64,000 nt of DNA from Macrostomum lignano. Taxonomy: Eukaryota. The notes beneath the pieces are model-generated. The model was not told where the DNA came from and did not search any database. It worked only from the letters and a program-made list of their open reading frames with translations. Each line of letters starts with the position of its first letter. The stretch's first letter is position 1. Positions 11,322-42,569 of the stretch are shown here, one piece after another. The translations under genes were made by a program, and so were the position numbers. The stretch is from NCBI GenBank assembly GCA_002269645.1, contig NIVC01001867.1, positions 124,001 through 188,000 of the forward strand. The letters are read 5' to 3'.

Positions 11322-11506
11322 TGTCATGACTTATGGGGTGGGGCCGCGTGGTAGGGGTGGAGCTTGTTTAGTAAGCCTAGCTAGCAGTACGTACGGTAAT
11401 GTACATGCGCGGGCCACCGTGCCCCTTGGCCTATAAAATATACAGAGCGTGGAGGGTTTTGCCTCAACTGAGTTTACTCCAGAATAAGCGAATTGACTTC
11501 ATTACA
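11322..11506 (+). repeat. 5' LTR (185 bp)
   Basis: TGTCATGAC...TTCATTACA; identical by eye to the 3' LTR. Confidence 0.97.
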
Positions 11507-11508
11507 AT

Positions 11509-11524
11509 TGGCGACGAGAATGGC
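11509..11524 (+). promoter_or_regulatory. Primer-binding site, tRNA-Ser(GCU)-like
   Basis: TGGCGACGAGAATGGC, 2 nt after the LTR; eukaryotic tRNA-Ser(GCU) 3' end predicts TGGCGACGAGGATGGG. Confidence 0.8.
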
Positions 11525-14500
11525 TTCAGTTGGACAACTAGAGCCTTACGAGGAAGGCAAAGATTGGGACGCCTATCAAGAGCGAATGGACTCTTACATG
11601 CTTGCAAACGGCATAGAAGGCGACGAAAAGAAGAAGGCAGTGTTTCTGACATTGATTGGCGAACGATGCTACGCAGTCCTGCGGGATCTCTGCAGTCCGA
11701 CCAAGCCAACAGATCTACAATACAGCGCCCTCACCGAGCACCTTCAAAAGCACTTCAAACCGAAGAAGCCAGTAATCGCTGAACGGTTCAAGTTCTACAA
11801 GCGGGCACAAAAGGACGGAGAGACGGCTGCTCAATTTCTGGCTGCGCTGCGGAATCTGGCCGATTCGTGCGAGTTCCGGGGGTTTCGAGAAGAAGCTCTC
11901 CGAGACTGTTTCGTCTGCGGTCTTCGGGACCAGCGGACCCAGCAGCGACTCCTGATGGAGGAGAAGCTCACGCTGGATGCGGCCAAGAAAATTGCCCTCG
12001 CGGCGGAGATTGCTAAGTCGGAAACGGAGCAGTGGAAATCGAGCTCAGACGTCAGCTCAGTCCAGCAGGTAGCGCCAGACTCGAAGGCGTGCTACAGGTG
12101 CGGATTGAAAGGCCACCTGTCGGCAGCCTGCCACTTCAGGACCGCAAAGTGCCACAACTGCGGGAAAGTTGGACACCTGCAGAAAGTTTGCCGCTCAGCC
12201 AAGAAAGCCTCCAGAACAACGAAAGCCGGACGGCCAGAGAACGGACCAGCGCACGCAATGCAAACGGAAGAGGAGGAAGCAGCAACTGGCTGGATTTCGC
12301 AAGTCACTGCATCGGCCAAGAAGATCAGCGTAAGCCTGCTGGTGAATGACCAGCCCCTCACCATGCAGCTGGACACCGGTGCCTGCGTCAGCCTCGTACC
12401 GGAGTCGGTGTGGAAGCAGCTCGGCCGACCTCCGCTGACACCAACACGCCTGCGACTCCGGACCTGGACGGGCGAGCCAATACAAGTCAAGGGAACAGCC
12501 GAGGTCAGGGTCAACTACGACGGAAGACAGCATGATAAGCTGCCGCTGGTGGTCACCAGTCAGACCGGAGCCTGCCCATTGCTAGGACGCAATTGGCTGG
12601 AAAAAGTGCGACTCAACTGGACTCAGTTGTTTGCCAACCAGATCAGCCAGGCGCCGGCGCAGAACAGCGGGCCTCTCGACCAGATGCTGGAGGAGTTCGC
12701 TGATGTTTTCGACGAGAGCCTGGGGCAGTTGAAGGATCAGACAGTCGCACTGAGACTTAAAAGTGACGCACAGCCTCGATTCTGCAAGGCCAGACCCGTG
12801 CCATTCGCAGTGCGGGACAAGCTTGAGCTCGAGCTCCAGGACATGCTCAACAAAGGGATCATCCGCCCGGTGTCCTACAGTGAGTGGGCTACGCCAGTGG
12901 TTCCGGTACTCAAGGCGGACGGCTCAGTCCGACTGTGCGGCGACTATAAACTGACGTTGAACCCTCAGCTCCACATCGACCAGTACCCGCTGCCTACGCC
13001 TGAAGAGCTTTACGAGCAGATGGGACGGGGTCAGCTGTTCTCAAAACTCGATCTGTCACAATGTTATCTTCAGTTTCCACTCGACGAAGAGAGCTGCAAG
13101 CTGACGACCATCAACACGCATAAAGGGCTTTTCGAGTACCTCCGGTTGCCATTTGGCGTCAGTTCGGCTCCTGCGATTTGCCAGAGGCTGATGGAAACAC
13201 TTTTGAAGGGCGTGCCGGGAGTCTGTTGTCGCATTGATGACATCCTGGTCTCCGGTCCGTCAATGAGTGAGCACCTAGCAGCGCTTCGAGAGGTACTGAC
13301 CAGGCTGAGAGCGGCGGGCTTGCGGCTGAAGCGAATCAAGTGCAAATTTCTGCAAGAAGAAGTCGAATACCTGGGCTCGTTGCTGAGCAAGGACGGAGTC
13401 AAGAAGCTGCCTCAGAAGGTGGAAGCAATAGTCAACAGCCCGAAGCCAGCGACAGTATCAGAGCTGCGATCATTCTTGGGCCTCGCAAACTACTATGCTC
13501 GACATGTCAAGGACTTCTCCACGATCGCTGCTCCTCTGTATCAACTGTTGAGGAAGGAGACGGACTGGCGGTGGGCTGAGACGGAGGACCGAGCCTGGGA
13601 CCATCTTAAGCAAGAACTGAGTACGGACAGCGTGCTGACGCATTTCAACGAGCAGCTTCCAGTGGTGGTGGCCGCGGATGCTTCATCGGTCGGCATCGGC
13701 GCGGTGCTGTCCCACACGATGGAGGACGGCTCGGAACGGCCGGTGACTTTTGCTTCAAGGACGCTGTCAGCAGCGGAGCGAAATTACTCGCAAATTGAGA
13801 AAGAAGCCCTCGCCATCGTGTTCGCCATCAAGCGGTTCCACCAGTACCTGTTCGGCCGGAGCTTCACGATAATTACGGATCATCAGCCGTTGACGACGAT
13901 TTTCGGACCGAAGGTTGGCATCTCGCCGACTGCAGCAGGGCGACTTCAGAGATGGGCACTGCTGCTGTCAGGGTACAGCTACAGCATCCGGTTCCGCAAG
14001 ACTGCTCAGCACAGCAACGCAGACGGCCTGTCTCGCTTGCCCCTGCAGATGAAGGACGACAACCCAGACGACGACGATCGGGTCTGTCAGCTGACGGGCG
14101 AGTTTCCATTGACGGCGGCGGATGTAGCGGCAGCAACGAAGCGGGATGACGAGCTCCGAGATGTTCTCCGGATGATAATGACTGGCTGGCCAGAGTCGGT
14201 TCCGCCGCGGCTCGAGCCCTACTTTCGTCGTCGACTAGAACTAAGCGTGGAAGACGGCTGCGTGATCTGGGGAACTCGCGTGCTGGTTCCGGAAGCGTTG
14301 CGACCTGGAGTTCTGCGCGAGTTACACGTGGAACATTTCGGCATGGCCCGGATGAAAAGTGTCGCCAGAACCTTCGTCTGGTGGCCAGGAATGGATTCTG
14401 ACATCGAGTCGGTTGCCAGCAGCTGCCAAGCCTGCCAATCCGTTAAGCTGCATCCGGTGCTGGCTCCACTGCACCCCTGGGTGTGGCCAGACCAGCCCTG

Positions 14501-15394
14501 GGACCGCATCCACGTTGACTTTGCCGGGCCGGTTCGAGGCCGCCAGTTTCTCCTCGTAGTCGACGCGCACTCAAAGTGGCCGCATGTGGAGGCCGTGTCA
14601 ACACTCGAATCGGCCGAGCTGGTTCGCAAGCTGCGAGTGTTGTTTGCACAATGGGGCCGCCGAGAGAACTGGTATCGGACAACGGTCCAGCATTCATCAG
14701 TCAAGGATTTAGCGATTTCTGCAAAGCAAATGGAATTCGCCACACAAGAAGCAGTCCATATCACGCCAAGACCAACGGACTGGTGGAACGGCTGGTGAAG
14801 TCGTTCAAGATGGCCATGGAGGCGTCACGGAGCAGTCAGCCGGACCTCGACATCCGCCTGTGCAACTGGCTGCTGGGCTACCGAGCTAGCCCGCACCCAA
14901 CGACCGGTCGGACACCAGCGGAGCTCTTCCTGAAGCGGCAGCTCCGGACTCGAATGGACCTGCTGCGGCCGTCAGCCCGGGATCGAGTACTGCGGGAGCA
15001 ATCTGCCCAGAAACGACAGCACGACCGGCGGTCGCGGGAGCTGCCGGAGGAGCCGTGGTCGGAGGCCTGGGCCAGGGACTACCGGCCTAATGCGGCGGCC
15101 TGGCAACCAGCAAAAGTTCTCGAGCAGACTGGGCCGCTGAGCTTCCGAGTCGAAACGAGCGACGGCCTGACCTGGCGCCGTCATGCCGACCAACTGCGGG
15201 GCCGGCGAGTTGAGAGCGACAAACCTGACGGTCCGGCAGCCGGGACCGAGCCAGCTGAAGCTGCGGACTCGACCGGGACCGGCGCGGAGCACCCGGAGCC
15301 GGAGCCGCCAGACGCGCCCTGCGGACTGCAGCCTGCACGCCGGCGACGGCCACCTGAGAAGCTGACCTACTCGAAACTCGGGAGCTGTGATTGA
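11520..15394 (+). CDS. gag-pol: Gag-Pol polyprotein with one frameshift in the integrase (~14655)
   Basis: Two CCHC knuckles (CYRCGLKGHLSAAC, CHNCGKVGHLQKVC), protease LDTGA, RT IDDIL, RNase H ADAS, integrase HHCC plus IHVDF / SDNG / VERL split between ORFs 11493-14798 and 14576-15394. Confidence 0.95.
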
Positions 15395-15414
15395 TAGGAA
15401 GCGGACTTCTTCTG

Positions 15415-15426
15415 AGAGGGGAAAAG
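15415..15426 (+). promoter_or_regulatory. Polypurine tract
   Basis: GAGGGGAAAAG-type purine run directly before the 3' LTR TG. Confidence 0.85.
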
Positions 15427-15605
15427 TGTCATGACTTATGGGGTGGGGCCGCGTGGTAGGGGTGGAGCTTGTTTAGTAAGCCTAGCTAGCAGTACGTACG
15501 GTAATGTACATGCGCGGGCCACCGTGCCCCTTGGCCTATAAAATATACAGAGCGTGGAGGGTTTTGCCTCAACTGAGTTTACTCCAGAATAAGCGAATTG
15601 ACTTC
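15427..15605 (+). repeat. 3' LTR, main part (last 6 bp ATTACA displaced to 34772-34777)
   Basis: Matches 5' LTR up to GACTTC, where Polinton-A begins. Confidence 0.97.
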
Positions 15606-15885
15606 AGTAGTAGGGAAAAAGACGCTTCCAGACCCAGAGCACTTTTTTAACAGCCGTTTTAAGGGTCTAGAGGGGGGACACGGGGGGTAAATAAAAAAAC
15701 ACATCTAAACACCCTTAACACATCTAATCACCCATAATCACCCACAACACCCCTTAATACCAAAAATCAATATAACCCATCCCCAACTCATCTTATCACA
15801 CCCCTCGTGTCCCCCCTCTGGAACCTTATAAACGACCATTAAAAAAGGTCTGATCTAGAAGCGTCTTTTTCCCTACTACTACTCT
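15606..15885 (+). repeat. Polinton-A left TIR
   Basis: Reverse complement of 34486-34765; further partial similarity to ~15920 with a ~65-bp deletion on the left. Confidence 0.95.
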
Positions 15886-15937
15886 ATAACCCCTTGCCCG
15901 CGCCGCAGGCGCGAAGGGTCTTTTTCTGTTACTAAAA

Positions 15938-16252
15938 ATGACCCGAGTTTACACCTTTTCTGTTAGTGATACTTTTGAGACTGTTGCTAAAAATGCAGAG
16001 ATAATAAAACAACATATTTTGAATGGAATAATTGATGAAGTTTATTTAAAATATGACGACAAGCATGACCTAAAGCTTTATCCATTAGAGCTAGATGAGA
16101 TGTATGATTTAGAACAAGAGGGTGAGTTAATATTTCAACTTGGAGATTATTTAAATTCGGATGATTGGGAGGTTAGATCAACAGATTCCGAATCAACAAA
16201 TAGTTCATATGAAACCAGTGATTCAGAGAATGAAAGTGAAATTTTTATGTGA
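15938..16252 (+). CDS. Polinton-A small acidic protein (104 aa)
   Basis: Near-identical to 57607-57921 in element B. Confidence 0.8.
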   Translation: MTRVYTFSVSDTFETVAKNAEIIKQHILNGIIDEVYLKYDDKHDLKLYPLELDEMYDLEQEGELIFQLGDYLNSDDWEVRSTDSESTNSSYETSDSENESEIFM

Positions 16253-16268
16253 AAAAAATATTTAAAAA

Positions 16269-16523
16269 ATGAACTATTATTCTATAACAGAAACGACGTT
16301 TATTATGAAAAATATATATAAAAAAATGAAGGTAAATCGAACCCATGGTTCGCGTGCTTTGCACGATTATTCCTACATCGGAAATGTTCCAATTAATGAA
16401 CTTAATGAAAATTTAAGTTTGATAACAGTTGAACAAATGTCAATAATAATATTAGTAACAATAATAGTAATAATATTGTTTTTGTTTGTAATAAAAAAAT
16501 TACTACCATGTTGTCTTAAGTAA
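16269..16523 (+). CDS. Polinton-A small C-terminal TM protein (84 aa, includes a 10-aa hairpin-element insertion)
   Basis: Hydrophobic IIILVTIIVIILFLFVI; 74-aa homolog at 57367-57591. Confidence 0.8.
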   Translation: MNYYSITETTFIMKNIYKKMKVNRTHGSRALHDYSYIGNVPINELNENLSLITVEQMSIIILVTIIVIILFLFVIKKLLPCCLK

Positions 16524-16533
16524 CTGTTCGAAC

Positions 16534-18136
16534 TTAGTTCGCTGATATTAGTTGGTTCTCATAAAACGAACCCAATATTTCTTCACCGTCCTTATCAGCA
16601 ATTATATAGGTTGTAGGATTGGTATTTAAAACTTTACTGATAGTAAATTTCTCACTTATCTTCCAATATCCTTTTCTTCCTTTTTCAAACTTATCTTTCC
16701 ATTTATAGATATAAACAGAATCACCAACCTTAAAAGATTTCTTTTTATTTTTTTCAAATTTTCCAAAAGTAACTTTAACTTTTTCAGGATTGTTATAAGC
16801 TTGTTGAGGAGTCATCTTTATAGCTGAATGATATGAATTGTTATAATCTTTCACTACGTCTGGTAATATTTTTACCCACTTTTGGTTACCATTAAGACTA
16901 AACTGAAACCATAATTTCTTACCTAAAGTTCGATTAAATCTTTCTATTAATGCGTTTTTACTCTCTCCATAAATAGAATAAATTTTATTAATATACTCCC
17001 CATTCGCGTCTTTTTTCCTTTCTTTTCCTTTTTCAAAATGATACAATTTATACATATGAGGATTGTAAAATTCTTTTCCTTCATCAACACACAATCTTTC
17101 GCTTTTTTCTCCAAGACTTCTAAAAGCAGCAGCAACCTCCTCTCCCTTTTTGGATTTTAAAGGAACAGCCCACGCGTATCGAGTAAAACCATCTAATATG
17201 GTTAAGATATATTTATATCCTCTTTCGTTCGGCATCGACATTAAATCAGCATACCAAATTTCATTCTTTTTGAAGTTCATGATTTTTCTATAAAATTTAG
17301 GTTTTCGATATTCTTTATGAAGAATCTTTGCCTCATCAGAACTTAACCCACCACCACTTAATAATAAACACTCGACACAATTATTTCCATGTTGATTATA
17401 ATTAATTCCCAAACCAAATTTAACTTTAGACTGCAAAATCTTTTTAACCATCCACCTAGTTAATCTTTGCCCTACCGATAATCCCTGCAAGTTATCTAAT
17501 CCTTGAATCATTTTTTGATCGGCTTCATGTTTTAATCTTAATGCTTCCTCGGGCGGGTTCTTGTCAGCATCTCTATATGCTAAGTCGTGATAGTATGCTA
17601 ACCAATCAATCCCATTTATTGGAATTGAATCAGATTTTGGAGTATTGTCAGGATTTAATCGGAGATCGAGTCGAGTCAACCCGGCCTTTATACCTTTGCT
17701 TTCACAAAGGAGTAGACTGTGTCTTAAGCTATCATAAGGATTGACTAAGTCCTTCAAGCCCACCAGCGTACAGTCGTTGCATCTCAACCATACTCAAGTC
17801 ATATGAGGTTAGGTTTTCGATTCACTCTTGCCCATATATTTATCTTCAAGCTTGTTACCGTTGGGAAGAGGAGTTACCTCTGTTCCTTTGTAATCTTTCG
17901 AAAACAAAGTGGTACTTGAAGCTTTAGGGGATTGAGTGAGCGGCTGGTGTTGCCACTAATAGTGACTAGCAGTAGCTTTGCATCTACCACTCGGGCACAG
18001 CTCGAGCTCCACCCGCGAAGTTGTAAGATGGGATGTGTAATTCATTTGTATACCTCCCAGTAGTAAAGATTGGTGGTAAGCTTGTTAATCCTTTTTGAAC
18101 ATCTAACAATCCTCCTTCAAACACAAGTTGGTTCAT
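16534..18136 (-). CDS. PLA2 (parvovirus VP1u-like)-DDE integrase fusion, split by a group I intron (exon 1 18136-18011, exon 2 17684-16534); 2 extra nt at start of exon 2 in this copy
   Basis: Exon 1 MNQLVFEGG...ELHIPSYNFAG joins PG(T)RLDLRL...YYHDLAY; integrase motifs WYADL, VDEGKEF, IERFNRTL; C-terminal FKVGDSV domain. Confidence 0.85.
17685..18010 (-). ncRNA. Group I intron (326 nt, ORF-less), element A
   Basis: 5' exon ends in U, intron ends in G; P1 CGGGU/GCCCG with U-G at splice site; P3 CACCAGC/GCUGGUG; P4 UCACUC/GAGUGA; P7 GACUG/CAGUC; P5abc-like extension with GGUAACAAGC bulge; GAAA-capped P9. Confidence 0.85.
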
Positions 18137-18620
18137 TTTTAATGTTTAAAAAACATGTTTCTATCAATTTAATAATTTCTAAATATTGATCACCATATAA
18201 AAAATTTAAAGCAAATTCCCCAGTTAACAAGGTAACTCCATTATCAAATACTTTTTGTACGGGGTTTTTAGTAGTATTATTAATGCAAATATAATATAAA
18301 TCAAATTCGGGATTAACATATTTAAATTCTAATAACTTTTGAATATTTCTAAATCGACTTGATGAATTATCTGTGTTATCAGAAGATTTTAACTCTAACG
18401 CAACTTTTCTTTCTGTATGAATTAAATCAATTTTATTTACTTTTTCAAAACCAAAATGTTTAATAGCTAATAATTCATAAAGAGATCCAAGTCTCATTTG
18501 TATTGTTTTAATATGGTTTGCAATTATTAATTCATCTTGAAATATTTTATTTAGTATTCTGTCAGAACCAACTTTATCACAAATAGGCTTACAAAGGTGG
18601 TCTTTTATTGTTTCATCCAT
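18117..18620 (-). CDS. PD-(D/E)XK restriction-endonuclease-like protein (Eco47II-like), element-A specific
   Basis: GSLYE...KIDL...LELKSSDNTDNSSS resembles the E...D-X-E-x-K core; absent from element B. Confidence 0.6.
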   Translation of the reverse strand: MDETIKDHLCKPICDKVGSDRILNKIFQDELIIANHIKTIQMRLGSLYELLAIKHFGFEKVNKIDLIHTERKVALELKSSDNTDNSSSRFRNIQKLLEFKYVNPEFDLYYICINNTTKNPVQKVFDNGVTLLTGEFALNFLYGDQYLEIIKLIETCFLNIKNEPTCV

Positions 18621-18647
18621 TTTATAAAAAATAAATTTAACAATTAA

Positions 18648-19319
18648 TTAAACACCAGTATGTCCAGCAGCTTTCGCAGCAGCTAAAACAAGTTTTCTAG
18701 GAGTTTTAAATCCTTCTCCAACAGCTGGTTTGTTATTTATAGAATTAACAATCCTTTTATACAAGCTGGTATTTTTAGCAGCTCTTACTCCCAACTCATC
18801 ATAAAAAATTTTTGCACTTACTAATTCATCCCTAGTATATAATTCAGGGTTAAATTTTACCCTAGGGTTCATAACAATATTATATGCTCCGCCCAATTCT
18901 CTATATAGTTCATTTCGATTTTTATCAACTCCACCAATTCGATAATTATTATTACCTAAATCTGTCACAGCAATACTAGTTGGTGCAGCTCTCGGATATT
19001 CATCAACTCCACCCCTTTCTGCAGCCCTAATCTCTGCAACTCTCAATTGAGCTTGATCAACATCATAAGCTGGCGGCTCATCCAAAATTTCATCCTCTTT
19101 TGGCTCCGTATTTTTAGCAATTTTTTCCAGAAGATCTTTATCTGTTTTTTCTAGTTCACTAATTTTCCCAGTAATAGGATTAACAAAAGGAGCAGCAAAT
19201 CTTTCACCCGCTAATTGTATTCCTAACTTTCTTTTTTGTAAATTTCTAACAAAATCAGAATATCTTTGCTTCTCTTTATAAATCGCTAACTCTCCATCAA
19301 CGTCCATAAATTGACTCAT
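18648..19319 (-). CDS. Conserved Polinton uncharacterised protein (223 aa)
   Basis: Homolog at 54455-55141; divergently transcribed from MCP. Confidence 0.8.
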   Translation of the reverse strand: MSQFMDVDGELAIYKEKQRYSDFVRNLQKRKLGIQLAGERFAAPFVNPITGKISELEKTDKDLLEKIAKNTEPKEDEILDEPPAYDVDQAQLRVAEIRAAERGGVDEYPRAAPTSIAVTDLGNNNYRIGGVDKNRNELYRELGGAYNIVMNPRVKFNPELYTRDELVSAKIFYDELGVRAAKNTSLYKRIVNSINNKPAVGEGFKTPRKLVLAAAKAAGHTGV

Positions 19320-19353
19320 TTTTTAACATAAAAAACTTTTTTAACTTAAAAAA

Positions 19354-20825
19354 ATGGCTGAAACAAAAACTATGTGGAGTGATAAATTTCATTTCAAAAA
19401 GCACCGACAGTATATTAATGAGGTCAGAGCAAGAGATTTAAATTATACCCTACCAACAAGTGATAATTCAAATAACTTTACTACTGGAACGGTAACTTTT
19501 GACATCGGCGCAACCAACACTATATTGGATATGAAAAATGCGTTTTTCCGCGTTAGATGGTTGTATACTAGAAATGATGGAACTGCTCTTGCAGCCGGAG
19601 ATATCGCAGATCGATCCGGAATAATAATAGAAAATGATTGGTTTTATAAATGTTTTTCCCAAGCTCAACTAACTGTTAATGGTGCTGAGGTTGAGACATC
19701 ATCAAACCCCGCAGAGATTAATGGAGTTTTGAAACATTTAAATTATACTTATTTATCAAAACAAGTTGGTGATAATGTTGGGTGGATGCCGGATAAAGGT
19801 AACGGTCAAGCAGTAGTTTTCCCTAATGTACAAAACGCAGCTGGTGCAGATACTGCAGCTCTAATTGCTTACCTTAATACAAACATAGTTCCAGTTGTAA
19901 CCACTATGACTAATACAAAAGATATTAATACTGGTTTTATAGATCGTCAGAGTAAATTCCCAGTCGCGGTTTTAACCACAGCAACAGCATATGAGCAGGA
20001 CTTTTCAATCTTCCCGCTATTTGGGTTCTTCTCACCAAATCGGGTATGGAAAGGATTAAAATTTGGGATACAGTTGCAAATATCTGGTGGATATCAGCCT
20101 AGGATACTTTATGGAACCTCAATTTCAACCGATATAGCAGTTCGTATAGATTCAATTCAATTAGTCGTACCAACTATTGAGGTAACAGCTCCGCTTTTAA
20201 AACACATCGATAATCAGTTAACGCATGATCAGGAAATATTTTATTTGAATCGTAGACACTTTATGCGAACCATTAATAACAATCAGGATTCATTCCAGTG
20301 GCAAATACTGACATCAAAACGTCGGGTGAGATATATTTTTGTTTGGTTTAAAATAACAAACAGAAGGAGTAAAAGAGCAAATGGGGATTTATATTGGCTT
20401 CAATCGGTGACATAGCAGCACAAGCAGCTACCGCAACAGACAACGCAGTTGCTGCAATTAACGAGTTTAATGTTCAGAATATCCGCCTGCAGGTTGATGA
20501 TCAATATTATCCGGTTAAAGACCCCCTAAATTTAAATATAGCAAATAATAATGTTAATGATTTTATAAAATATTATCAAGATTATGCTAAAAATGAAGCG
20601 TATGCCGTCCCTCAGTACACACCCACAGAGTTTCTAAACATTCATCCAGTGGTTGTTTATGATCTAACGGCACAGAAAGAAAACGTAGCCAATATTGGAC
20701 TTAATTATATGTTAGAGATTAATAAAACCGGTAATCAGGCACTTGACGCCCACGTATTGTTTCTAGAGGAATATATGTCAATTGCTAAAGCTGATGGCAC
20801 GATTGTTCGGGACGCGCCGCTGTAA
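19354..20825 (+). CDS. Major capsid protein (double jelly-roll), frameshift ~20405
   Basis: ~490 aa beta-rich, position before ATPase/penton/protease; element B reads through this junction (QSGDIAAQ). Confidence 0.8.
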
Positions 20826-20876
20826 AATGAGTGCAGGTCTCCGACCGTCGCGCCTATTTAAATTATTTCTTTAAAA

Positions 20877-21676
20877 ATGGTAAAGGCAAAACACGATAAG
20901 ATATTTCCAAATGATCCTTTTCTTTGTTTAGTAATTGGTGGGTCGGGTAAAGGAAAAACACACTTTGTTTACGATTTATTAACAACAGATGGAATGCTAG
21001 ACTATAATAATTTAATAATTTATACTAATAAACCTAGAATAAAATATTATGAATTTCTTAAACATGGATTAAAAAACAAATTAAAAAAAGATGTCTTGTT
21101 TAGAATGTTAAGAGCATATGAGCAATATGAGGATGATGACGAACCGCGATTTAATCTAGCAGACATTGAGGATTTATGTAAAACAATGGCACAACAGCCA
21201 GAAAACATCACCGATCGCCCCGTAGGGTCGCGGACTCCGTCCGATCGCGCCCAACTGTTAGAGTATCAACCCGATTAGCCTATGATCAAATTCCAAAACA
21301 TGATAAAACACTAATTATTTTTGATGATTGTATTAATGACGGTGATCAAGAATTACAAAAGGAAATTTTTGTTAGTGGTAGAGGAGATGGAATCGGAGCT
21401 TTTTATCTAACACAGTCCTTTAGAGAATTAGAATCGATTATAAAAAAGAATGCAAGTTGTTGTGTAATGTTTGATTTAGATAATTATGATTTACAAAATA
21501 TACACGCTAGATTTAATCCCGGGTTGGATGCAAAACCATTTAAAAGTATGTGTAAAAAAATTTGGGATGATAGCCAATACAAACATATTTATATCAATCC
21601 GAGGTTAGAAAGGAAACATAGAATTTTAACAAATTTGATAAAAGAAGATAATGAGGAAGAAGAGGATCGTGCATAG
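20877..21676 (+). CDS. A32/FtsK-like DNA packaging ATPase, frameshift ~21255
   Basis: Walker A GGSGKGKT, Walker B LIIFDD, RGDGIGAFYLTQ; continuous 263-aa homolog in B. Confidence 0.9.
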
Positions 21677-21774
21677 CACGCGTACCTTCGGTACGATCGC
21701 CCCATAGGGTCGCGTAACTTCGGTACGATCGTTCCTTCGGAACGCGGACTTCGTCCGATTCTTCCACTATAAAA

Positions 21775-22560
21775 ATGGCTACAAATTTAGATACTATAAA
21801 ACAATTGGTAGATCGAACTAATTCAAAATTTAGTACAACATTACAGTTTATAATGACAACCAGCGAGCAACGGATTCAATTGCGCGATCCATTACAACTT
21901 GATCAAAGCCTAAGTTATCAAATAGGTTTAATACTATTTTCGGTTTTCAACATGCCTCAATTAATTAATGCAACAAATAATCAATTTAGATATTCTAAAG
22001 ATTCCGGAGCCAATTGGACAACATTTAGCGTTAACCCAGGAGCGTATAGCTATACTGATTTGAATGCTTATATAGAAGGAGAATTAACAACTAATGGTGA
22101 TTGGGTAGCAGGAGCAATTGTTATAGGTGTTGATTTACCGTCTGGCAGATTCACACTATCACTAGGATCCGGATATCAGGTTGATTTCACAATTGCAAAT
22201 TCACTCAGAACCATACTTGGATTTAATTCCCGAATAGTTACCACATCAAGCACCGGTGATACAGTTGGAAATATAGAGGGTGGAGTAAATACAATTAATA
22301 TAACAACCGACATTTCAAACGGTGGTTATATAACAGACGATAACGGAGTTTTGGTTCAACGTGGAATTATTTATTCAATCCCATTTCTTGCTGTTCCAAT
22401 TGGAGAGAAAATGATTGTATCACCTCAAACCCCAATATATTACCCATTAAATCAATATAATGTTCAATCAATTTATATTAGGATTGTAGATGAAAGCGAT
22501 AGATTAATAAGTTTTGGTGGGCAGTCAATAACAGTGATTTTACGTATAAAACAGGTTTAG
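21775..22560 (+). CDS. Minor capsid protein (penton, single jelly-roll)
   Basis: P-L-L...YQIGL..FSVFN...NNQFRY...PGAY pattern typical of Polinton pentons; synteny. Confidence 0.75.
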   Translation: MATNLDTIKQLVDRTNSKFSTTLQFIMTTSEQRIQLRDPLQLDQSLSYQIGLILFSVFNMPQLINATNNQFRYSKDSGANWTTFSVNPGAYSYTDLNAYIEGELTTNGDWVAGAIVIGVDLPSGRFTLSLGSGYQVDFTIANSLRTILGFNSRIVTTSSTGDTVGNIEGGVNTINITTDISNGGYITDDNGVLVQRGIIYSIPFLAVPIGEKMIVSPQTPIYYPLNQYNVQSIYIRIVDESDRLISFGGQSITVILRIKQV

Positions 22561-22570
22561 TACTGTAAAA

Positions 22571-22780
22571 ATGGGTAATCGAACAACATGTTCGCGTGCA
22601 AAGCACGATAATAATAATAATTTAATAAAAAAACAATCAGAAAAAGTTAAAAAAGCTGAAGATAATTACGAACTAGAACTAGCAAAATTAAGGCAGTTAC
22701 AAGCTGATAAAATAAGAAAGGAATTGTTAAAACCCACACCTACGAAACTAACTAAAACCAAGAGTTTTTCAGGAACATAA
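22571..22780 (+). CDS. Small MG-starting coiled-coil protein
   Basis: 57-aa homolog at 51101-51274 (minus). Confidence 0.7.
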   Translation: MGNRTTCSRAKHDNNNNLIKKQSEKVKKAEDNYELELAKLRQLQADKIRKELLKPTPTKLTKTKSFSGT

Positions 22781-22781
22781 A

Positions 22782-23222
22782 ATGACCATGACGTGGGATG
22801 ATTTTAAACAAAGATATGGAACGGACACAACAAGCAATATCGAATTAACAAATTGGGCGAGGCAGTTAAAAATAAAACCATTCAGATGTGTTATGCGAGA
22901 TGAGATCAAAGACTTACCACAATATGGATCTTTCATTGTTAATATTGAAACAACAAAAGAAAACGGTGTTCATTGGTCAGCAGTTTATTCAAAACCAAAA
23001 CTTGTTTATTTTTTTGATTCATACGCGCTTCCTCCGTTACAGGAAATAAAAGATAAATTTAATCATACTAAAAATCGTTTATGTGGAGATCATCACGAAC
23101 AGTTTCAAACCTTTGATAAAAGTTATTGCGGGCAAGCGGCGTTGTATTTTTTATATCGACTTTCGAATGAAGCTCGTGTAAACCACAAAGTATTTAAGAC
23201 TATTTTAGACTCTATAAAATAG
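22782..23222 (+). CDS. Adenain-like cysteine protease
   Basis: GVHW...FFDSY...QTFDKSYCG catalytic H-D-Q-C order. Confidence 0.92.
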   Translation: MTMTWDDFKQRYGTDTTSNIELTNWARQLKIKPFRCVMRDEIKDLPQYGSFIVNIETTKENGVHWSAVYSKPKLVYFFDSYALPPLQEIKDKFNHTKNRLCGDHHEQFQTFDKSYCGQAALYFLYRLSNEARVNHKVFKTILDSIK

Positions 23223-23232
23223 ACAGTAAAAA

Positions 23233-25102
23233 ATGATATTTTCTGGAACACCCTCATGGAACGGAACAACAAGTACTGGTGGTGGTACTCTGGTGGAATA
23301 AGTGTTACCTTCGGAGATAATCGATATATTAATGAAGATGAAGGTTATAAAAAAAGTGAAGTTGATACTAAACTAAATTTGAAACGGAATGTTGCAGATT
23401 CCTATACCAAAACTGAAATCGATACTTCATTAAATCTTAAAAGAGATATTAGCGATTCATATACAAAATCAGAGGTTGACACTGGGTTAAATTTAAAAAG
23501 AGATATAACTGATTCTTATTCTCGAACTGATTCTGATTCGCGTTATGTTCAAGCCACCGCAACCGGAACTTTAGATATGGATAACAATCGAATTATAAAT
23601 GTTGCAATTACAACGAATAACTCGGTAGTTGATAAGAACTATGTCGATAATCAGGTTGGTAGTCGTAACGGCAATATCAATATGAATAATTTTAAATTAA
23701 CAAATTTATTATTTGGAACAGAGGCCACAGACTCGGTCAATTTAGGGCAGGTCAACGCTCGAGCTAATGTAACCGACGCCGATATTTTTGCCACGCCGCT
23801 TACATCAAATACTTCAAATCCAGATGTTGTTCTTACAGCATCCGAAAATACCAACGATGCTTTTCGAGTTGGAGATGGAAGCCTTGCGACACAATGGTCA
23901 CCAAATACCGGAACCACAACCAATATGGAAATTCAATTTGAATTTTTAGGTTATAATCGAAGAATAAATGAATTAAGAATTACAGGCAGCGCAACTATTG
24001 ATATTCCATCGGGATGGTCGGTTCGTGCAAAAAATGTTGCTACCGATGCATGGACGGTATTACGAACGTCGGGATCACCAATTCAAGCAACTTCATTTGC
24101 GTTAACTAATTTAACGGTTAATTTTTGGAAATATTATAGCGTTTTATTCCCAACTGGTGGCACCGCTACACAACCTATCGAGGTTCGTCTAATACAATTA
24201 TTTGAACACCGAGTTGAAATTCAAGATCTTAATTGGCCAAATGAAATACTATCTGCTACCCGCGAGCGTACGTAGATCAGGTAGCAACTCCAACTTCAAA
24301 TGGTAGAATGTCTGCCGGTGATAAAAATAAATTGGATAATATTCCCGCGATTGATGCCGCATTATTCGAGCCAGTAATTTGTAATTGGACTGGATATCAA
24401 AATCCAACAACCGCTGGAGATATATATCCAGTTGGTTCTTTAATTGGCGACGCTTCTTATATCGATTATCAAAATGGAGCTAGAATTACTCGTGAAACTG
24501 GTGGAGTAAGTGGGGCATTACAATTCAATTTCACACATTTTCAAAATATATCTGCGTCTTTCTATTTCCGAGTCGCTAATTCTACAGGAGATGGTGCAGA
24601 TGCGGTTTGGTTTTATGCATATTGTCACGAACGCCCAACAAGTGAAGGTGGGACTGGATTAACAACCGACGCCGGATTGATAGTTTTTGCAAGTGAGTGG
24701 CATGATAAATTTGGCGTTGTATGGAGTAATAAAAAATCAGACGGATCAAGCCGCGCGGATGTTAATACTGACGCAGATCAAACGGTAGATTATGCAAATA
24801 TTGATAACGGCGATTGGCATTTATTTGAAATTAATATTTTAAATCAAAGGGTTTGGTACCGATTACAGTCATACAATGTTGCTGGTGATTCTTTTACCCT
24901 CATTGGACAGAACGTTTTCACATATGATAGTGGAACTTGGGGAACTTTAGATAAATCTGGAACCCTTATGGGTTTTGGTGCTCGAACTGGAGGATCGGAT
25001 GCTGCACATTTTATTCGTGGCGCAGCCGTTTGTGGTAGCACATCGTTTGGTTATGTTTTTCCTTCTACCGCTTATTTAGAAAAACCACCCGTACAAATCT
25101 AA
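23233..25102 (+). pseudogene. Fibre/receptor-binding protein, two frameshifts
   Basis: 19-aa YTKxEVDxxLNLKRxxxDS repeats, discoidin-like middle domain, C-terminal lectin-like domain; continuous 643-aa homolog in B. Confidence 0.75.
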
Positions 25103-25117
25103 ATATTTATATATAAA

Positions 25118-25444
25118 ATGGCTTTTAGTAGAACTCCATCGATGCGGCAAAATAATGTTATTATTCCTATTCCTAAACAAGAATCAAATATAAAAACATT
25201 CAAATCTCATACCAAATTTTTATTTAGTACTGTAAATGTTCAGGATAATAAGAAGCTTCAAGAATTAATTAAGTTATTAAAAAATCATATTATACTTCAA
25301 GAGTTTTGGAAAATAGGATTTAAATGGGAGAAAAAAGAAAGAATCACTCCAATACAATACCTATTGAGCTCGGGACAAATCCCCAAAGAGCGCGGGGAAT
25401 TCATTTTGGTGCTATTAAAAATAGACGAAAATGTCGGTGTCTGA
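25118..25444 (+). CDS. Polinton uncharacterised protein (108 aa)
   Basis: Homolog at 48264-48644. Confidence 0.7.
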   Translation: MAFSRTPSMRQNNVIIPIPKQESNIKTFKSHTKFLFSTVNVQDNKKLQELIKLLKNHIILQEFWKIGFKWEKKERITPIQYLLSSGQIPKERGEFILVLLKIDENVGV

Positions 25445-26084
25445 AGCAGATAAAAGGGAACGTGATCATTTTAACCAACGCAAGGGTCACATGTTGAGTA
25501 ATGTTGATCGAATAAATTATGATTATGATTTATATACTAAAAAAGTAAGAAGAATTTCAAATCATATCAGAAATATGGATTTTTTCAATATTGGATTTGG
25601 AAGCTTATCGATGTTATGTGTAATTGTTTTAGGTATTTTACAATCATTTCCAACTCTTAATTTATCTCAATTATTTTTAGGTATTTCAATTGGCTCAATA
25701 TCAGGTTTTGAATTGATCAGGAACTTATCAATACTTTTAGCAATTAAATTATATCTTAAAAAAAGAAAGGAAAAATATAAATCTTTAAGAGATGTTGCAA
25801 AACAATATAAAAATCAATTATATTTATATGTGCAAAAAATATTGGATGACGGAGAGATAACTATTCATGAATTATCAACCGCGGTTGAGTTATATGAAAA
25901 ATATTTAAAAGATAGAAATAGAATTTTGGATGTTGAAACTTTTACCGATATGGAATTGAAGGAATTGCGTTTGGACAAACCCAAAGCTCCTCCGATAGAA
26001 ACTATTGAATACAAACCGGAAACTATTGCTACCGGGTTACAAAGTCCGCGGTCAGGAAGTACTGTAGAACTTCAGGTTGTTTAG
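25431..26084 (+). CDS. Two-TM membrane protein with conserved LDDGEITIHE helix region
   Basis: Two hydrophobic segments; homolog at 47678-48333. Confidence 0.75.
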   Translation: MSVSEADKRERDHFNQRKGHMLSNVDRINYDYDLYTKKVRRISNHIRNMDFFNIGFGSLSMLCVIVLGILQSFPTLNLSQLFLGISIGSISGFELIRNLSILLAIKLYLKKRKEKYKSLRDVAKQYKNQLYLYVQKILDDGEITIHELSTAVELYEKYLKDRNRILDVETFTDMELKELRLDKPKAPPIETIEYKPETIATGLQSPRSGSTVELQVV

Positions 26085-26559
26085 TTTATTTAATGCATAC
26101 GTTATATATTCTTCCCAAAGTGGTAACTCTCTTGATCCTAGGTTTAAATTTTTTATCAATACATAAAAATTCCAATGACTTTTTCAATAACATTTCGTTA
26201 GGTATGTTACCTATCCTTATAAACTTTGTATTCTCTCGAATAAGAAAATTGAAATAATATCCAACTAAAATTAAAATCCTTTCGGAGTCTTTCGAACTTA
26301 ATCCCTTTCCTTTATTTAAATGGAAAAAGTTATTATATAAATAAACATTATTTCCGGAATTAAAATTGGATCGAAATGTCTCTTGTAAGATTTCTTAAAA
26401 TTGTGTTTTTAAAATAGTAATATGAATTTTCAATCTTTTTTTTTTTTCAAATTGATATATTTTAGAACATGAATAACACATATGATATATATCTCCGTTT
26501 GCTGTTTGCCCTCTGTGCATAGTCACATTACATTTATTACAAACATAAATGTCTTTCAT
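26052..26559 (-). pseudogene. Zn-ribbon protein, frameshifted
   Basis: Nucleotide homology to intact 47198-47710. Confidence 0.65.
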
Positions 26560-26585
26560 TTTTTTGTTATTTTTTTAGATTAAAA

Positions 26586-26918
26586 ATGGAAAGTTGGTTC
26601 AAAACCGATTCTAATGTGATTAATTATCTCACACCCAATATGTTGGAGAATAAAGAATATAATATTATATGTTTGAGACAGGTTAAATTTATTGGACTTC
26701 AATCAATATTTTTACAATTAGATGGGCAAAAAATTTTATGTCTAAGCGGAGATGATGTTAAAAATTTTCCTGTTTTAGTTATTAATAAACCTAAAGCGTT
26801 TGTTATGAAATACTGCAACGAGGGTGGATTGCAATTTAAACTAAAACAAACAAATAATAAAAAGAGTGATAGGACTGTAAAATTGGCGGCTGTTTGGGAG
26901 GATGACGACGAAGACTAA
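26586..26918 (+). CDS. Polinton uncharacterised beta-rich protein with acidic tail (110 aa)
   Basis: Homolog at 46840-47171. Confidence 0.7.
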   Translation: MESWFKTDSNVINYLTPNMLENKEYNIICLRQVKFIGLQSIFLQLDGQKILCLSGDDVKNFPVLVINKPKAFVMKYCNEGGLQFKLKQTNNKKSDRTVKLAAVWEDDDED

Positions 26919-26933
26919 ATTTTTTATAAGAAA

Positions 26934-27308
26934 ATGGATACGATAAAAATCCTTATCACTAAAGAGCGTGAACTTAATGATATTAATAAAAAAATAAATA
27001 TAATTATATCTCAGAAATATCATGAGTATGGGGACGATATGTTTCCCATCCGATATGAATGATAAAAGAAAACGTTTTTTAAACTGCAATTGTTATGCTG
27101 AAACAGTAATTGAAATTGAAATAGATAGATTGGTTAGAAAAATAAAAAAACTTAGGAAAAAAATAAAGGATTGTTTAAGTTACCCTGACGACTGCGAGGA
27201 AAATTGGCCTTCAATATTATATGAAATCGAAATGGATATTATGCTTAAACAATTACATGCTTTAGTTTTTTTCCGCCCGAAGGGTCGCGGATTTTATCCG
27301 ATAAGTAA
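26934..27308 (+). pseudogene. Polinton uncharacterised protein, frameshifted
   Basis: Homology to 46464-46823. Confidence 0.6.
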
Positions 27309-30300
27309 TTTTTCTGTTAATCTCTTCCAGTTATTCAAGACTTTTTCCTTATTTAATTTTTTAAGTTCTTTTGGAAATGTTGAATAATAATTATCTATAT
27401 CTTTTTCATATTCTAGAAATGTATTATATTCACAATCACATTCGGATTCACAATCACAATCGTAATAATAATTATTTATTGCCGCTTTGTATTCATTATA
27501 TTTACTTATTATATCTTCTTTTTGTTTTTTATCTTTTATCATATTTTTTATCTCTTCTTTTAAACCATATGGATATGTTTTAATTTTATCATCTAAATAT
27601 CTTTTATCATCAAATGGACTTAATGTTTTTTTATCTGTCTCGATGACAAACATCTGATGCTTATCTGAATTTAATCGATATTGTGGAGCATGATAATTTT
27701 CAATTGTATTAAGGTAATCTAAAAGTACGTTTTTATAATCATCAAATGTTATCTTTTTTACTGCTGCTCTTGATACCCCTTTTATTTTTTTTACCTCTCC
27801 CTCCTGTCCTAAAACTTAAATGCATAGCATTTTGATCTTATTGCTATAAACTCGGTTATGATTTTGCTATTTAATTCATCTTTCATTTTAAGTACAACTT
27901 TTTTATTTTGATCTGATTTTAAAGGATGGTTATCCGGATAGTCGGAGGTATCCAATGTATCCTTAATTTTTTCCATATCTTTATAGACATCGAACCTTTG
28001 GTTCGCGGCTCCGTCCGTCATCTGTTTCAACCTTAAATACCAAACTGTCGGTGTCTGCATATATTGGATAGTTATCTGGCCATGTTTTATTTATAACATC
28101 ATAATAGTATTCATACATTACTAGCTTTGCATAATCTAAAACAACCATTCCAATAAATATTGGTTTAAGAAATTTTGTTGTTTTATTTCTCATATGAATA
28201 CCCATAAAGTTATCATCAAATTTTATAAAGTCTTTAAAGTTAGGTTTTGAGAAATATTTCTTTGCTTTATCAATATCCTTTTCTAAATGGAATTGGGTTC
28301 TATCTCTAATATTTTCAACCGTTTTTCCATAAAAAGCATTATTCATTAATTTCCAATAATCTTTCTCAAAATTTGTTTTTGACATCTGTCTCTGATTTGA
28401 ATTAAAGTCAATATATTTAGCTAACCAATCTTCCTCAATAAACGATATTGTTCGATGTACTTTAGACACTTTTAATCCCTGTTTTCATAAAATTGTAGAA
28501 GCTTATAATGCACTACATAGTTTTTCTTATCATGTAAATTTAATATTAATTTTTTTGTTGCTAGATGTTTTGCATTATCTGCTTTAAGATAATCTTTTTG
28601 TGTTTGTGATAAATCATCTTCATTAACTGAACAATGCTCTGGAGCTAAAGGATATTTATATGTTTTTGCTTTTGCTTCCCGAGTATATTGCAAATCCACT
28701 TCTACGATACAGCCCCTTCCTTCGGGAATATTTTTGTAATAATCGGGGTCATCTTCCCATTGGAAATCAGCTATTGGTAATTTTTGTTTCATACAACCAC
28801 CGTATAAATTGTTTGCATCTAGATATAATACATATGATGATTTTTCTTTTTTATTATAATTTGGTAGATATTTATTATTTACTTTAGTATATCTATCTCC
28901 TAGTACACCCGAGAATCCGCCGCGAATTCCTCTCTCAATCATTAACAACATATCATGATCAGTTAGTAAATCAATCTTAACATCTGTGTATTTCAAACCA
29001 CAAGCCCATGTTAATCCGGTGCACTGAAACAATATGCGGGATCAATTTTAAAATTCTCATATGTATGATTCCTAAAGTTTTCAAATGCATCAGCTAATAG
29101 GAGAACATCTGCTTTAAGATATAGATTATGATAATCTTTAAATGTTTTACAATTAAAATATTTCCATACTTTTTGAGCGTGTTCATAATCCGATTCACTT
29201 ATGTTTGTTTGTGATAATGTTGAATAAAACTTTTCAATTGGGGGTAATTCGGTATGAAAAATACGTCTTCAGATGTTACATATTCATATGGGTAGATGCC
29301 CTTACGAGTTAATAGCATTAGTTCTTCCTCGGATAGTTTTTCTTTTTGAAACGATTCAATAAGATTGGAAAGTTTTTCTTTACTATTTCTAAATCCCATG
29401 GTTTTGGAACTAATGATGAAACAACATTTGCTAAAGATGTTGATAAGAATCTCAAGGAATCTAGAAAAACTAGATGGGAGTATTTCTTACCATATGTTAT
29501 TGATATGTAATTTTCTGATGTTTTAGGTAATATATTTATTTCATATTCATCCTTTCCTAAATGAAGCAATTCTCGAACTAGAAATGAAAATCATATCCGG
29601 AACCATTATGAAAAAATACTGGTATTTCCTTACATCCTTTTCCTTCTTTTGCGTTACATGATCTACATGCTGCCCCTCGATAAATTCCCGTTAGATGACA
29701 ATGTTCTCGTATCTTATTTTTCTTACTTAAATATCTTTTGCACATATAACAATTTGTTGCATTTTTATAATTGTCTCTATCCTTATCTGTCATAATAATA
29801 TTTTTTGATAATTTATCATATTGATTTTGAATATATTCAAATACATTTACTAATGATTCTGCCATGTGCTTAGCTGCATCATTACCGTGGTAAGTAATCA
29901 TCCTTGATTTAAATATATGATCAGCTACGGAGTGTACATATATACAATAACTATTAGGAAACTGTTGTGCTAATTTTTTTGTGCATTCACCATCAGATAC
30001 TGTCTGTGATTCTTTTAAGGGAACATTTGTTGCTTCAAAATCAGCATATATTACTATTGGTTTTTTAATTGCCATATAATGTTGTTGGAACATTAGGGTT
30101 GCATCTTCAGATGCTGGCATTACAGCATTAGTAAATTTGTGATCTAAACAAAATCGTTGATGATTTTTAAGAGCTGTTTCATCCTTTTTAAATGTGAAAC
30201 AATTTCTACATAGTGGATATCTATTTCTATTTTCTCTTAAAAAGAACTAATGTCCTTTATGTATATATAATGTGTTTCATTTTCACGCTGCATGTACAAA

Positions 30301-31219
30301 AGGTCGATTTGATCTGGTGCTGTTATATCTGTTGCTGGCTTAACAAGATAACACCTTTTCTTATACCATTCTGGATTGGTTGAAATTTCTTCTAGATCTT
30401 TTGGTTCTTCAATTGTAAACACATTAATATTTAAACCATTCATTTTTTCAATCTTATATATATCATCTATTGCTACTGGGTATGATATGTTTTTCATTAT
30501 TATTTCATCTCATATTGTTATAATTATATATTTTATTAGTGTGTGATTCTACTTGATTGTGATATTTATGAATTAATAAACACCATAATAAACATTTATT
30601 ATCTTTATTGTTGGATTTATGATCATTGGTGATTTAAATTTGAGCTTCATATGTGATCGTCCTTTAAGAATTTCTATGGGTGCAATCTTTACTATTGCTG
30701 AATTACAGGATACAAATATAAACCCGATCCGTTTTCTGTCATCTTATCTATCCATTCATCAAACTCAGCTTCTATTTGATTAAATTGATTATTGTAATTT
30801 CCCATTGATAGTAGTGTTTTATATGATTCTTGTGAAAAGTTATTTATTACTTCAATTTCTGAATTTGCATTAAGAATATTTGGTTTTTTAAATTCTGTTT
30901 CAACTTCTATTTTATACTTAATTGGCTGTCGTTTGTTATTTGGCCTTATAGTATAATTGTTTAATATGGTCTTTAATTTATCTTTCATTTGTTTAAAATA
31001 TTCTTTATAATTTGTATTTATATCTATATCTATACCTATTACTTCAGCTCCATTTTGTCCTTGTGGTTGGGGGTTATCAATATCATTTAATTGTCTTTCT
31101 AAACGTATCTCATTTTCTGCCCTAACTCTAGCTTCTATATTAGCTCTTTCTAATTCCAATTGAGCTATTAATTGCGCTCTAAGTTCAGGGTTGTCGATTT
31201 GAGCTAAAATTGCTTCCAT
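27294..31219 (-). pseudogene. Protein-primed DNA polymerase B, multiple frameshifts
   Basis: Fragments 30692-31219, 30237-30497, 29578-30120, 29318-29569, 28472-29032, 27981-28469, 27294-27653 match the intact copy in B. Confidence 0.92.
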
Positions 31220-31303
31220 TTTATAGAATAAAATTTATATAATGTTTGAATTATTGATTTTTTAATTTTGTGTTTTTGGTGTCCAGACCCTCCCCCCAGG
31301 AGC

Positions 31304-32263: not shown

Positions 32264-32273
32264 TTTTATATTG

Positions 32274-32684
32274 TTAAAATTTCTTTAATCCTTTTCCGCC
32301 TTTAATTGTGGTTAACATTTTATTAAAATCCTGAATATCTTTATTACTTATTGGTGTGCTTTTCGTGGGGGTTTCTGTTGGTTGTGCGGCTTGAGTTGTT
32401 TCCTGCGCTAGTTTCAAATCTTTTATTGCTTTTATTTGTGAGAGGGTGTCGTTAAATTCTCTCAATTTCTTTAGTTCTTCTACTGCCCTCGCTGCTTCGA
32501 TTCCGCCCTTTACAGCGTTTGTTATAGAACCTGCTGCAGAGCCTGCTTGGCCTATAAGACCCATATTGTCTTTAACGAAATTCGCTGCTGTACCAACCAC
32601 ATCAAAAAGACCCTCACCTCGGTATTCAACTGGGTCTCCTACCTGCAATTCGTTCAGATTTTGCATATGTGTAACGTGTGTCAT
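32274..32684 (-). CDS. Virion precursor with amphipathic segment (GEG-LFDVVGTAANFVKD)
   Basis: Homolog at 41102-41500. Confidence 0.7.
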   Translation of the reverse strand: MTHVTHMQNLNELQVGDPVEYRGEGLFDVVGTAANFVKDNMGLIGQAGSAAGSITNAVKGGIEAARAVEELKKLREFNDTLSQIKAIKDLKLAQETTQAAQPTETPTKSTPISNKDIQDFNKMLTTIKGGKGLKKF

Positions 32685-33127
32685 TTTTTGTTCTATTTTT
32701 AGTAACAGAAAAATTAAGTTGCAGACACTAAAGAAAAGGGTAGTGTGCAAGCATCTCGAGCGGTTTTATTTTATAGCTCTTTTTTACTCTTTTTTGTATA
32801 GAAAATAAAGAAGACGCAAACACAAAAGATTCTCTATCCAAAAATGAACCTATGGTTCGCGGGCTGTGCCCGATGGCACAAATGGCCTGCTCCGCTGGAG
32901 CACAATGGACGCTTTTTATTCGATGAATGGCCATTTTTCTCTCTGTCCTCGGTGCATTGTGTCTATAACAGCACATGAATTTTTCTCATAGCTTAGAAAA
33001 AATCATGTATACACTAAAAGAGTTTGGTGCACACACACACATGATTTTTTCTAAGCTATGAGAAAAATTCATGTATACACTAAAAAGATTGTCAGTTTAA
33101 TAGTTATGGAAATAGCACGCAAATTAT

Positions 33128-41500: not shown

Positions 41501-41510
41501 CAATATAAAA

Positions 41511-42485: not shown

Positions 42486-42569
42486 GCTCCTGGGGGGTGG
42501 GTCAGGACGCTAAAAACATAAAATTAAAAAACCAATAATTCAAATACTATATAAATTATATTCTATAAA

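Follow-up and report, generated by a model that had tools for sequence, protein, structure and literature searches.

Long self-folding ends with co-varying arms in Maverick/Polinton elements of Macrostomum lignano

Two Maverick elements in one window

The window analysed here comprises 64,000 nucleotides of contig NIVC01001867.1 of Macrostomum lignano (C1867:124001-188000 of the 764-Mb assembly), and the survey described below covers this one genome. Two low-GC elements lie in it in opposite orientations, A (15606-34765) and B (40563-58282), with the following main features.

15606-34765: Maverick/Polinton A, 19.2 kb, polymerase and other frames fragmented in the assembly
15600-15605 (+), second copy at 34766-34771: TSD of A, GACTTC, within the 3' LTR of an LTR retroelement
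40563-58282: Maverick/Polinton B, 17.7 kb, orientation opposite to A
40557-40562 and 58283-58288: TSD of B, GCCGCA
42570-46478 (+): polymerase ORF of B, protein-primed family B (pPolB), with an inserted endonuclease VII domain (PF02945, E 6e-7)
50659-54420 (-): protease, putative minor capsid, A32-type ATPase and putative major capsid genes of B
56349-57356 (+): rve integrase of B (PF00665, E 1e-7); the copy in A is at 16534-17511 (-)

Mavericks/Polintons are described as having TIRs ending in (AGT)2 or (AG)3 together with a 6-bp TSD (PMC8097293), and a length range of 13-25 kb has been given for them (bioRxiv 10.1101/2023.08.22.554363). Both elements have the end motif (within TIRs of 340-410 bp that end in (AGT)2), the 6-bp TSD, a length within this range, a pPolB, an rve integrase, and an ATPase with a protease. 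On the basis of the gene set, the (AGT)2 ends and the 6-bp TSDs, A and B are therefore Mavericks/Polintons.

The 1302-aa polymerase ORF of B carries what we take to be the Exo I-III and A-C motifs, read by eye. Direct scanning of this ORF gave no PF03175 match and no PDB sequence match; the family's polymerase copy at C2322 scores above the PF03175 cut-off. The integrase of B reaches 32.5 bits with PF00665, 0.1 bit below the cut-off of 32.6. The packaging ATPase matches Pox_A32 (E 5e-7), and the protease is C5-like: it matches Atlas clusters at 0.96-0.97, whose members carry Peptidase_C5 in 13-62% of cases; for the A/B family, the ATPase/protease test returned no PDB match. The putative major capsid protein matches viral Atlas clusters at 0.97-0.98, with a recognition score below threshold. 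One of the clusters that it matches has DJR-like_dom on 10% of members, and three unnamed homologues were found without DNA context. The minor capsid label in B reflects position and size only. A protein with an adenovirus pX-like match is also encoded by the A/B elements. Among 19 ORFs scanned with Pfam, none matched a Rep/HUH or Rep/NS1 nickase family, and 8 matched no family at all. Searches of viral_contigs and metagenome_contigs by tblastn found no relatives beyond this genome.

Several minor features accompany the two elements. Maverick A is inserted 6 bp short of the 3' LTR end of an LTR retroelement (11322-15605 and 34772-34777) that encodes a protease, RT, RNase H and an integrase zinc finger, and whose LTRs are 99% identical; from its domain order, we take it to be Gypsy-like. 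The accessory genes of A include a restriction-endonuclease-like ORF with a weak Eco47II match (18117-18620), and the matching place in B is occupied by a cysteine-rich gene, HNH-like by eye (55169-55768). An extra 224-aa ORF lies close to the right end of A (33340-34014). A fibre-like ORF with 19-aa repeats is present in B (48660-50591) and in A (23256-25102); part of it differs between the two, and an F5/8 type C (discoidin) domain lies in this part of the B version. Double-hairpin repeats of about 34 nt are scattered at 21214, 21728, 27271, 32843, 50621, 50651, 57039 and 16340, mostly between Maverick genes, and could be terminators or processing signals.

The fold-back unit and the covariation of its arms

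The original prediction held that the terminus recurs inverted inside both TIRs of A and of B, and all eight motif positions were confirmed. The terminal motif of A lies at 15606 and 34765 (minus strand), with inverted inner copies ending at 15880 and starting at 34491; that of B lies at 40563 and 58282, with inner copies ending at 40826 and starting at 58019. The predicted unit lengths, 275 nt in A and 264 nt in B, are also correct, as are the two substitutions common to the terminal and internal motifs of B: G10/A15 is found in all four motifs of A and T10/C15 in all four of B.

15606-15688 (+): left outer arm of A, beginning with the (AGT)2 Maverick terminus
15689-15799 (+): left unpairable loop of A, 0 G in 111 nt
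15800-15880 (-): left inner arm of A, an inverted imperfect copy of the terminus
15899-15913 (+): left GC hairpin of A, 6 bp with a GCA loop, conserved, behind the unit
34391-34490 (-): right GC hairpin of A (34391-34405) with a spacer of the CCAACACTT type that exceeds the left one by 67 nt
34491-34765 (-): right fold-back unit of A, identical to the left unit
40563-40826 (+): left fold-back unit of B, 264 nt
40885-40899 (+): left GC hairpin of B
58019-58282 (-): right fold-back unit of B; GC hairpin at 57946-57960

The arms, of about 83 nt and 83-84% alike, form an imperfect stem of about 83 bp. The arms are identical up to position 23 (A) or 22 (B); beyond that they differ by a 3-nt bulge and several substitutions. 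An extra AGT precedes the inner copy in A, where B has TGT, and the loop of B contains 1 G in 102 nt. The A unit folds at -65.0 kcal/mol (z -13.1) and the B unit at -67.9 kcal/mol (z -14.9), with 0 of 200 shuffles as stable in either case. Folding holds for either strand (z -13 to -15). A comparison aimed at which of the two strands folds counted 26 vs 14 wobble pairs (p 0.08). In this end type, hereafter type 1, the 3' end is fully paired and the stem ends exactly at the terminus, leaving the host DNA as a flap. Behind the unit come a variable CCAACACTT spacer and then the 6-bp GC hairpin with its GCA loop, for which a pattern search gave 229 matches in the genome. Each strand end can thus fold into a hairpin of 240-300 nt with an imperfect stem of 80-90 bp and an unpairable loop of 80-110 nt.

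The left TIR of A is without the 67-nt spacer present in the right one, and the 275-nt units are identical nonetheless; the sequences suggest that A may be a recombinant whose units were homogenised later. Comparison of 15881-15898 on the left with 34406-34490 on the right shows that the left spacer region resembles the main subfamily. Elsewhere, at L088 (C904:21.0-21.4k), a stretch made up of the inner arm, the GC hairpin and part of the loop is present twice in tandem.

DNA and pattern searches across the genome gave 159 loci, 158 of them with both arms; the pattern searches cover the first 100 of 165, 105, 229 and 112 matches, and the survey depends on the chosen anchors. Removal of 15 junction repeats, 4 damaged starts and 1 contig end left 138 ends. 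Among these, within the matches listed, the arms are identical at positions 7-27 in 58 ends and 1-4 nt apart in 80. The predicted joint change of all four motifs thus holds within A and B, and is a tendency only across the family. At the same positions, 35 distinct outer/inner pairs from the matches listed differ by 1.23, compared with 4.24 when permuted (0/20000). With 18 further, mostly divergent junctions (two more were left out, one being the solo remnant and the other an end whose inner start is deleted), the 46 pairs then available among the matches listed differ by 1.17 vs 4.97 at positions 7-27. In this enlarged set the covariation reaches the middle of the stem, where 51 pairs differ by 9.55 vs 12.7 (0/20000). 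All these permutations treat related haplotypes as independent and ignore phylogeny. Within this scope, covariation across family members, the check that the original prediction had called for, is borne out. Since the same derived bases occur at the same positions in both arms, the arms co-evolve. Within the largest subfamily, the inner arm has the counterpart of a new outer T10 in 9/46 ends vs 2/55 (p 0.02), and the inner TTACC variant is found in 4/12 ends with the outer variant and in 0/89 without it, the ends being non-independent in both comparisons. In one case (L139/L159 vs L150), the inner allele of one end is the outer allele of the other end, a cross-end exchange.

The bulge at positions 28-34, a CCC/TCA difference, is retained in 134 of the 138 ends among the matches listed. 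A universally essential mismatch at 28-34 was rejected because of C1695, where the stems at both ends are near-perfect and without the bulge, and which has a matching 6-bp TSD. At both ends of this element the first 4 nt of the inner terminus are missing, and the 3' end is unpaired over 4 nt. A further candidate, an end with two outer arms at C1429, was dropped, its inner arm having only partly matched the pattern.

Besides type 1, a second end module was found. Other Polinton types were sought by a PF03175 search, in which 10 regions were examined and 6 had clear TIR pairs. The elements at C3469 and C506 have the same body as B, with 91.5% identity along 12.6 kb in the case of C3469, and their first 250 nt are unrelated to B. 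This type-2 unit of about 258 nt, with 104 candidates, folds at z -13.0, and in 29 of 30 loci the GC hairpin lies behind it. Its arms co-vary at positions 10-34 (16 pairs, 1.44 vs 2.57 permuted); in the second stem segment covariation is not significant (p 0.054). The terminal 9 nt are mostly unpaired, so that the distance from stem to terminus is 0, 4 or 9 nt according to end type, and an inner AGTAGT is found in 0 of 26 type-2 junctions. As type 2 is unrelated in sequence, folds alike and does without the inner AGTAGT, the fold is the conserved property and the inner terminus is not. A second origin at the inner terminus, another suggestion of the original prediction, is consequently not supported as a general feature, the inner AGTAGT being absent in 26/26 type-2 ends and C1695 being without its first 4 nt.

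The fold is not universal in this genome. The TIRs of C114/C759/C754 and of C173 have no fold-back, with a best inverted score of 16-17 and, for the TIR whose fold was scored, z +0.7; these two TIR types without the fold show that pPolB elements do not require it. The C173 element (C173:199634-208632) is 9 kb long, with a pPolB-family match inside and 1.18-kb TIRs starting ACTACT (L185:4634-5814) that also hold the GCA-loop GC hairpin motif. Short, internally deleted type-2 copies of 3-4 kb occur at C393:168308-172388 and C1040:22365-25404. A tandem double unit at C2506 (L207/L248, C2506:60-78k), considered as a case of end capture, is one type-2 element nested in the TIR spacer of another.

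Solo forms, copying relics and breakpoints

The unit had also been predicted to be a mini-element or MITE. Among the matches listed, 215 loci representing 169 distinct type-1 junctions include no complete solo unit: 167 junctions continue into the element with the inner arm kept, L099 is truncated, and the last is a 202-bp remnant. The latter (L251/L259; C158:28.1-28.3k and C808:94.5-94.7k) is a single TSD-flanked insertion assembled twice; the greater part of its inner arm is missing, and it is consistent with a deletion joining the two TIRs. Neither a flipped unit nor an inner-type arm at a host junction occurs in the 215 loci among the matches listed, which show no sign of flip and flop orientations. 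On these counts the mini-element claim is not supported, and the hairpin-end reading offered beside it is supported: as judged from its sequence, the unit is a hairpin end module of a Maverick lineage and not a mini-element.

A number of ends preserve traces of copying between the arms. Outer-to-inner tracts are found at L062, over 55 nt that include a rare allele (this junction is assembled again as L089), and at L064, over 54 nt on one contig. Their partner ends, L074 and L067, paired with them by TSD, are unconverted, and the tracts are therefore one-ended. At the type-2 end L283, seen on one contig, the inner arm is replaced by a 74-nt perfect copy of the outer arm and the bulge is lost. 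In the other direction, the terminus of L144/L145 carries the inner-type TAC. The arms thus exchange sequence in both directions, although the one-ended tracts could postdate integration and have arisen via host replication.

A further relic, at L063, is an overrun: the 19 nt in front of the terminus match the inner-arm flank exactly, up to the base of the GC hairpin. Of 154 loci, none besides L063 has an extension of more than 3 nt. The flank of L049, an end of the complementary type, repeats 292 bp of the L063 host flank at 100%. Together the two ends would imply that integration was one-ended and duplicated 292 bp where 6 bp is the norm, the pairing across contigs being inferred; such a duplication would be expected if one end was an improper integrase substrate. 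The L063 junction is matched exactly by a 77-nt short-read contig (run X1, depth 36) with 29 host letters against a bridging threshold of 31, and X1 is possibly the assembled sample itself. The GC hairpin base is a breakpoint not only in L063 but also in L054 and L265, where deletions start at it. With the family-wide covariation and the copy tracts, the templated end extension at L063 supports the predicted homogenisation by fold-back or template switching.

How the hairpin ends may be replicated and maintained

Protein-primed strand displacement, with its displaced strand, is the general basis of the mechanism proposed here. The displaced single strand would rebuild at each end a local duplex origin and a repair template, a reading that we give an even chance of being right. 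Protein-primed synthesis would release a single strand of 17-19 kb, whose 3' end would snap back onto the inner arm to form a local double-stranded origin, dispensing with a long-range panhandle between the two TIRs. Terminal-protein priming would then begin at the true 3' terminus, and a single orientation of the unit would be kept. Trimming of the 3' end by the polymerase and its re-extension on the inner arm could account for inner-to-outer copying and end repair, with an occasional overrun of the extension that stalls at the GC hairpin. A nascent strand switching onto its own 5' arm could give outer-to-inner copying, and the covariation would be the trace of this arm copying and of selection for pairing. 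The model draws its support from the fold z scores, the covariation, the sister module, the two-way tracts, the L063 overrun, the breakpoints at the hairpin base, the lack of a flipped unit and the analogy with Streptomyces discussed below.

Against the model stand the pPolB elements of this genome that do without the fold, the one-ended tracts, which may postdate integration, the strand comparison with its p of 0.08, and the largest subfamily, where the inner arm follows a new outer allele in only 9 of 46 ends. Part of the evidence could also be read in other ways. Polymerases are known to cause mutations by switching templates between inverted repeats that match imperfectly (PMC3820800), and the unit might be a passive quasi-palindrome: the end would have been duplicated in inverted form long ago, and such switching would keep perfecting a hairpin without useful role. 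The one-ended tracts at L062, L064 and L283 resemble such events, and other TIR types do without the fold. However, length, stem, unpairable loop and position are common to two unrelated sequences, and, among the matches listed, the inner arm is kept in 167/169 type-1 junctions and the bulge persists despite conversion in 134/138 ends; we consider a passive origin improbable. An equally unlikely account is parvovirus-like self-priming by the folded 3'-OH, with asymmetric resolution of the dimer junction as at the left end of MVM, possibly by the endonuclease VII domain present in the polymerase. The fully paired 3' end of type 1 would suit it, as would L063, which resembles a self-primed extension or a cut junction; asymmetric resolution would yield no flop (PMC1185569), and self-priming has been proposed for the 52-nt terminal palindromes of Halocafeteria elements (bioRxiv 10.64898/2026.07.28.741278). 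By contrast, the 3' end is mostly unpaired over 9 nt in type 2 and over 4 nt at C1695, where the bulge is absent and yet the 6-bp TSDs match; no Rep/HUH family occurs among the 19 ORFs scanned; and where polinton pPolBs contain homing-endonuclease inserts, these have been interpreted as invading inteins (bioRxiv 10.1101/2024.03.18.585575).

The hairpin might instead serve another step, marking the boundary between host and element for excision from single-stranded chromosomal DNA, shielding free ends, or aiding packaging. The type-1 stem does stop exactly at the terminus with host DNA as a flap, and poxvirus hairpin mismatches reportedly play a role in maturation, to judge from the title of a paper. 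This reading too has a low probability: the distance from stem to terminus varies with end type (0, 4 or 9 nt), and the copying relics indicate DNA synthesis on a folded strand. Far less probable than any of these is an excisable mini-element (MITE), or a second origin yielding 265-nt mini-replicons. Both could explain the terminus motifs at the two ends of type-1 units, and the 202-bp TSD-flanked remnant L251/L259 could be taken for a solo copy; but this remnant is a single insertion that has lost most of the inner arm and fits an inter-TIR deletion, 0 complete solo units were found at the 169 junctions among the matches listed, and the inner AGTAGT is absent in 26/26 type-2 ends.

The preferred reading, local folding of the displaced strand, can be taken a step further, though only tentatively, as we consider the larger claim rather less likely than the mechanism itself. 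The lineage may have swapped the long-range panhandle of adenovirus-type replication for self-contained, exchangeable hairpin telomeres of about 260 nt that would provide every displaced strand with a duplex origin of its own and a spare copy of the terminus, with the GCA mini-hairpin as a stop against runaway self-priming. If so, integrated copies would be a fossil record of Maverick replication intermediates, and the lineage a hybrid of protein-primed and hairpin end strategies. About 190 genomic ends now bear on how Mavericks replicate and keep their ends: the covariation, the module exchange and the copying accidents point to a folded single-stranded intermediate. The hairpin ends also offer a short substrate on which priming and end repair could be studied directly, and they connect with the terminal palindromes lately noted in protist virophages and PLVs.

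Compared with known systems, the elements share with Mavericks/Polintons (Polintoviricetes) the (AGT)2 ends, 6-bp TSD, TIRs, pPolB, rve integrase, ATPase, protease and capsid-like genes. They differ from other Mavericks in that each TIR is a long imperfect palindrome with co-evolving arms, available as two exchangeable, unrelated modules. Hairpin and palindrome terms are absent from the main text of the surveys searched, in vertebrates, nematodes and cryptophytes. In the titles and abstract starts of the open literature, no description of self-folding Maverick TIRs with co-evolving arms was found; the original Polinton/Maverick papers, Repbase, subscription journals and bioRxiv supplements lie outside this scope and may describe such TIRs. 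A related feature is seen in Halocafeteria virophages and PLVs, where a palindrome lies at the TIR extremity beside the TSD and a hairpin role in replication has been proposed (bioRxiv 10.64898/2026.07.28.741278). Those palindromes, as presented in the preprint, measure 52 nt in the figured subtype, were defined with a gap limit of 10, belong mostly to non-pPolB elements and come with no report of covariation, whereas here a stem of 80-90 bp, imperfect, with a loop of 80-110 nt belongs to a pPolB element with copying relics. The terminal-hairpin idea therefore has a precedent in this 2026 preprint.

For adenovirus and PRD1, too, the model is that a displaced strand regenerates its duplex origin by pairing within itself, which also restores homology, and direct evidence for their panhandles is described as lacking (PMC11886824). 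The adenovirus/PRD1 panhandle pairs the two genome ends, whereas here each end can pair with itself, along some 270 nt. A tested analogue of priming and repair on folded 3' ends is found in the telomeres of Streptomyces (Tap/Tpg): there too, priming by a protein takes place on a 3' single strand that is folded, truncated ends are repaired by folding back, and GNA-loop hairpins occur. Their repair used the local Palindrome I hairpin rather than the longer-range I-IV duplex; they differ in being bacterial, with an internal origin, short packed palindromes and unrelated proteins (PMC5449611). The left end of the parvovirus MVM shares an imperfect terminal hairpin, with asymmetric resolution (PMC1185569), but parvoviruses have an ssDNA genome and the NS1 nickase, and the elements described here have a pPolB, an integrase and, in one module, unpaired 3' ends. 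Finally, MITEs resemble the unit in being short and bounded by inverted termini, whereas no independent amplified insertion of the unit was found among the matches listed; the 202-bp remnant L251/L259 could possibly be the seed of a MITE.
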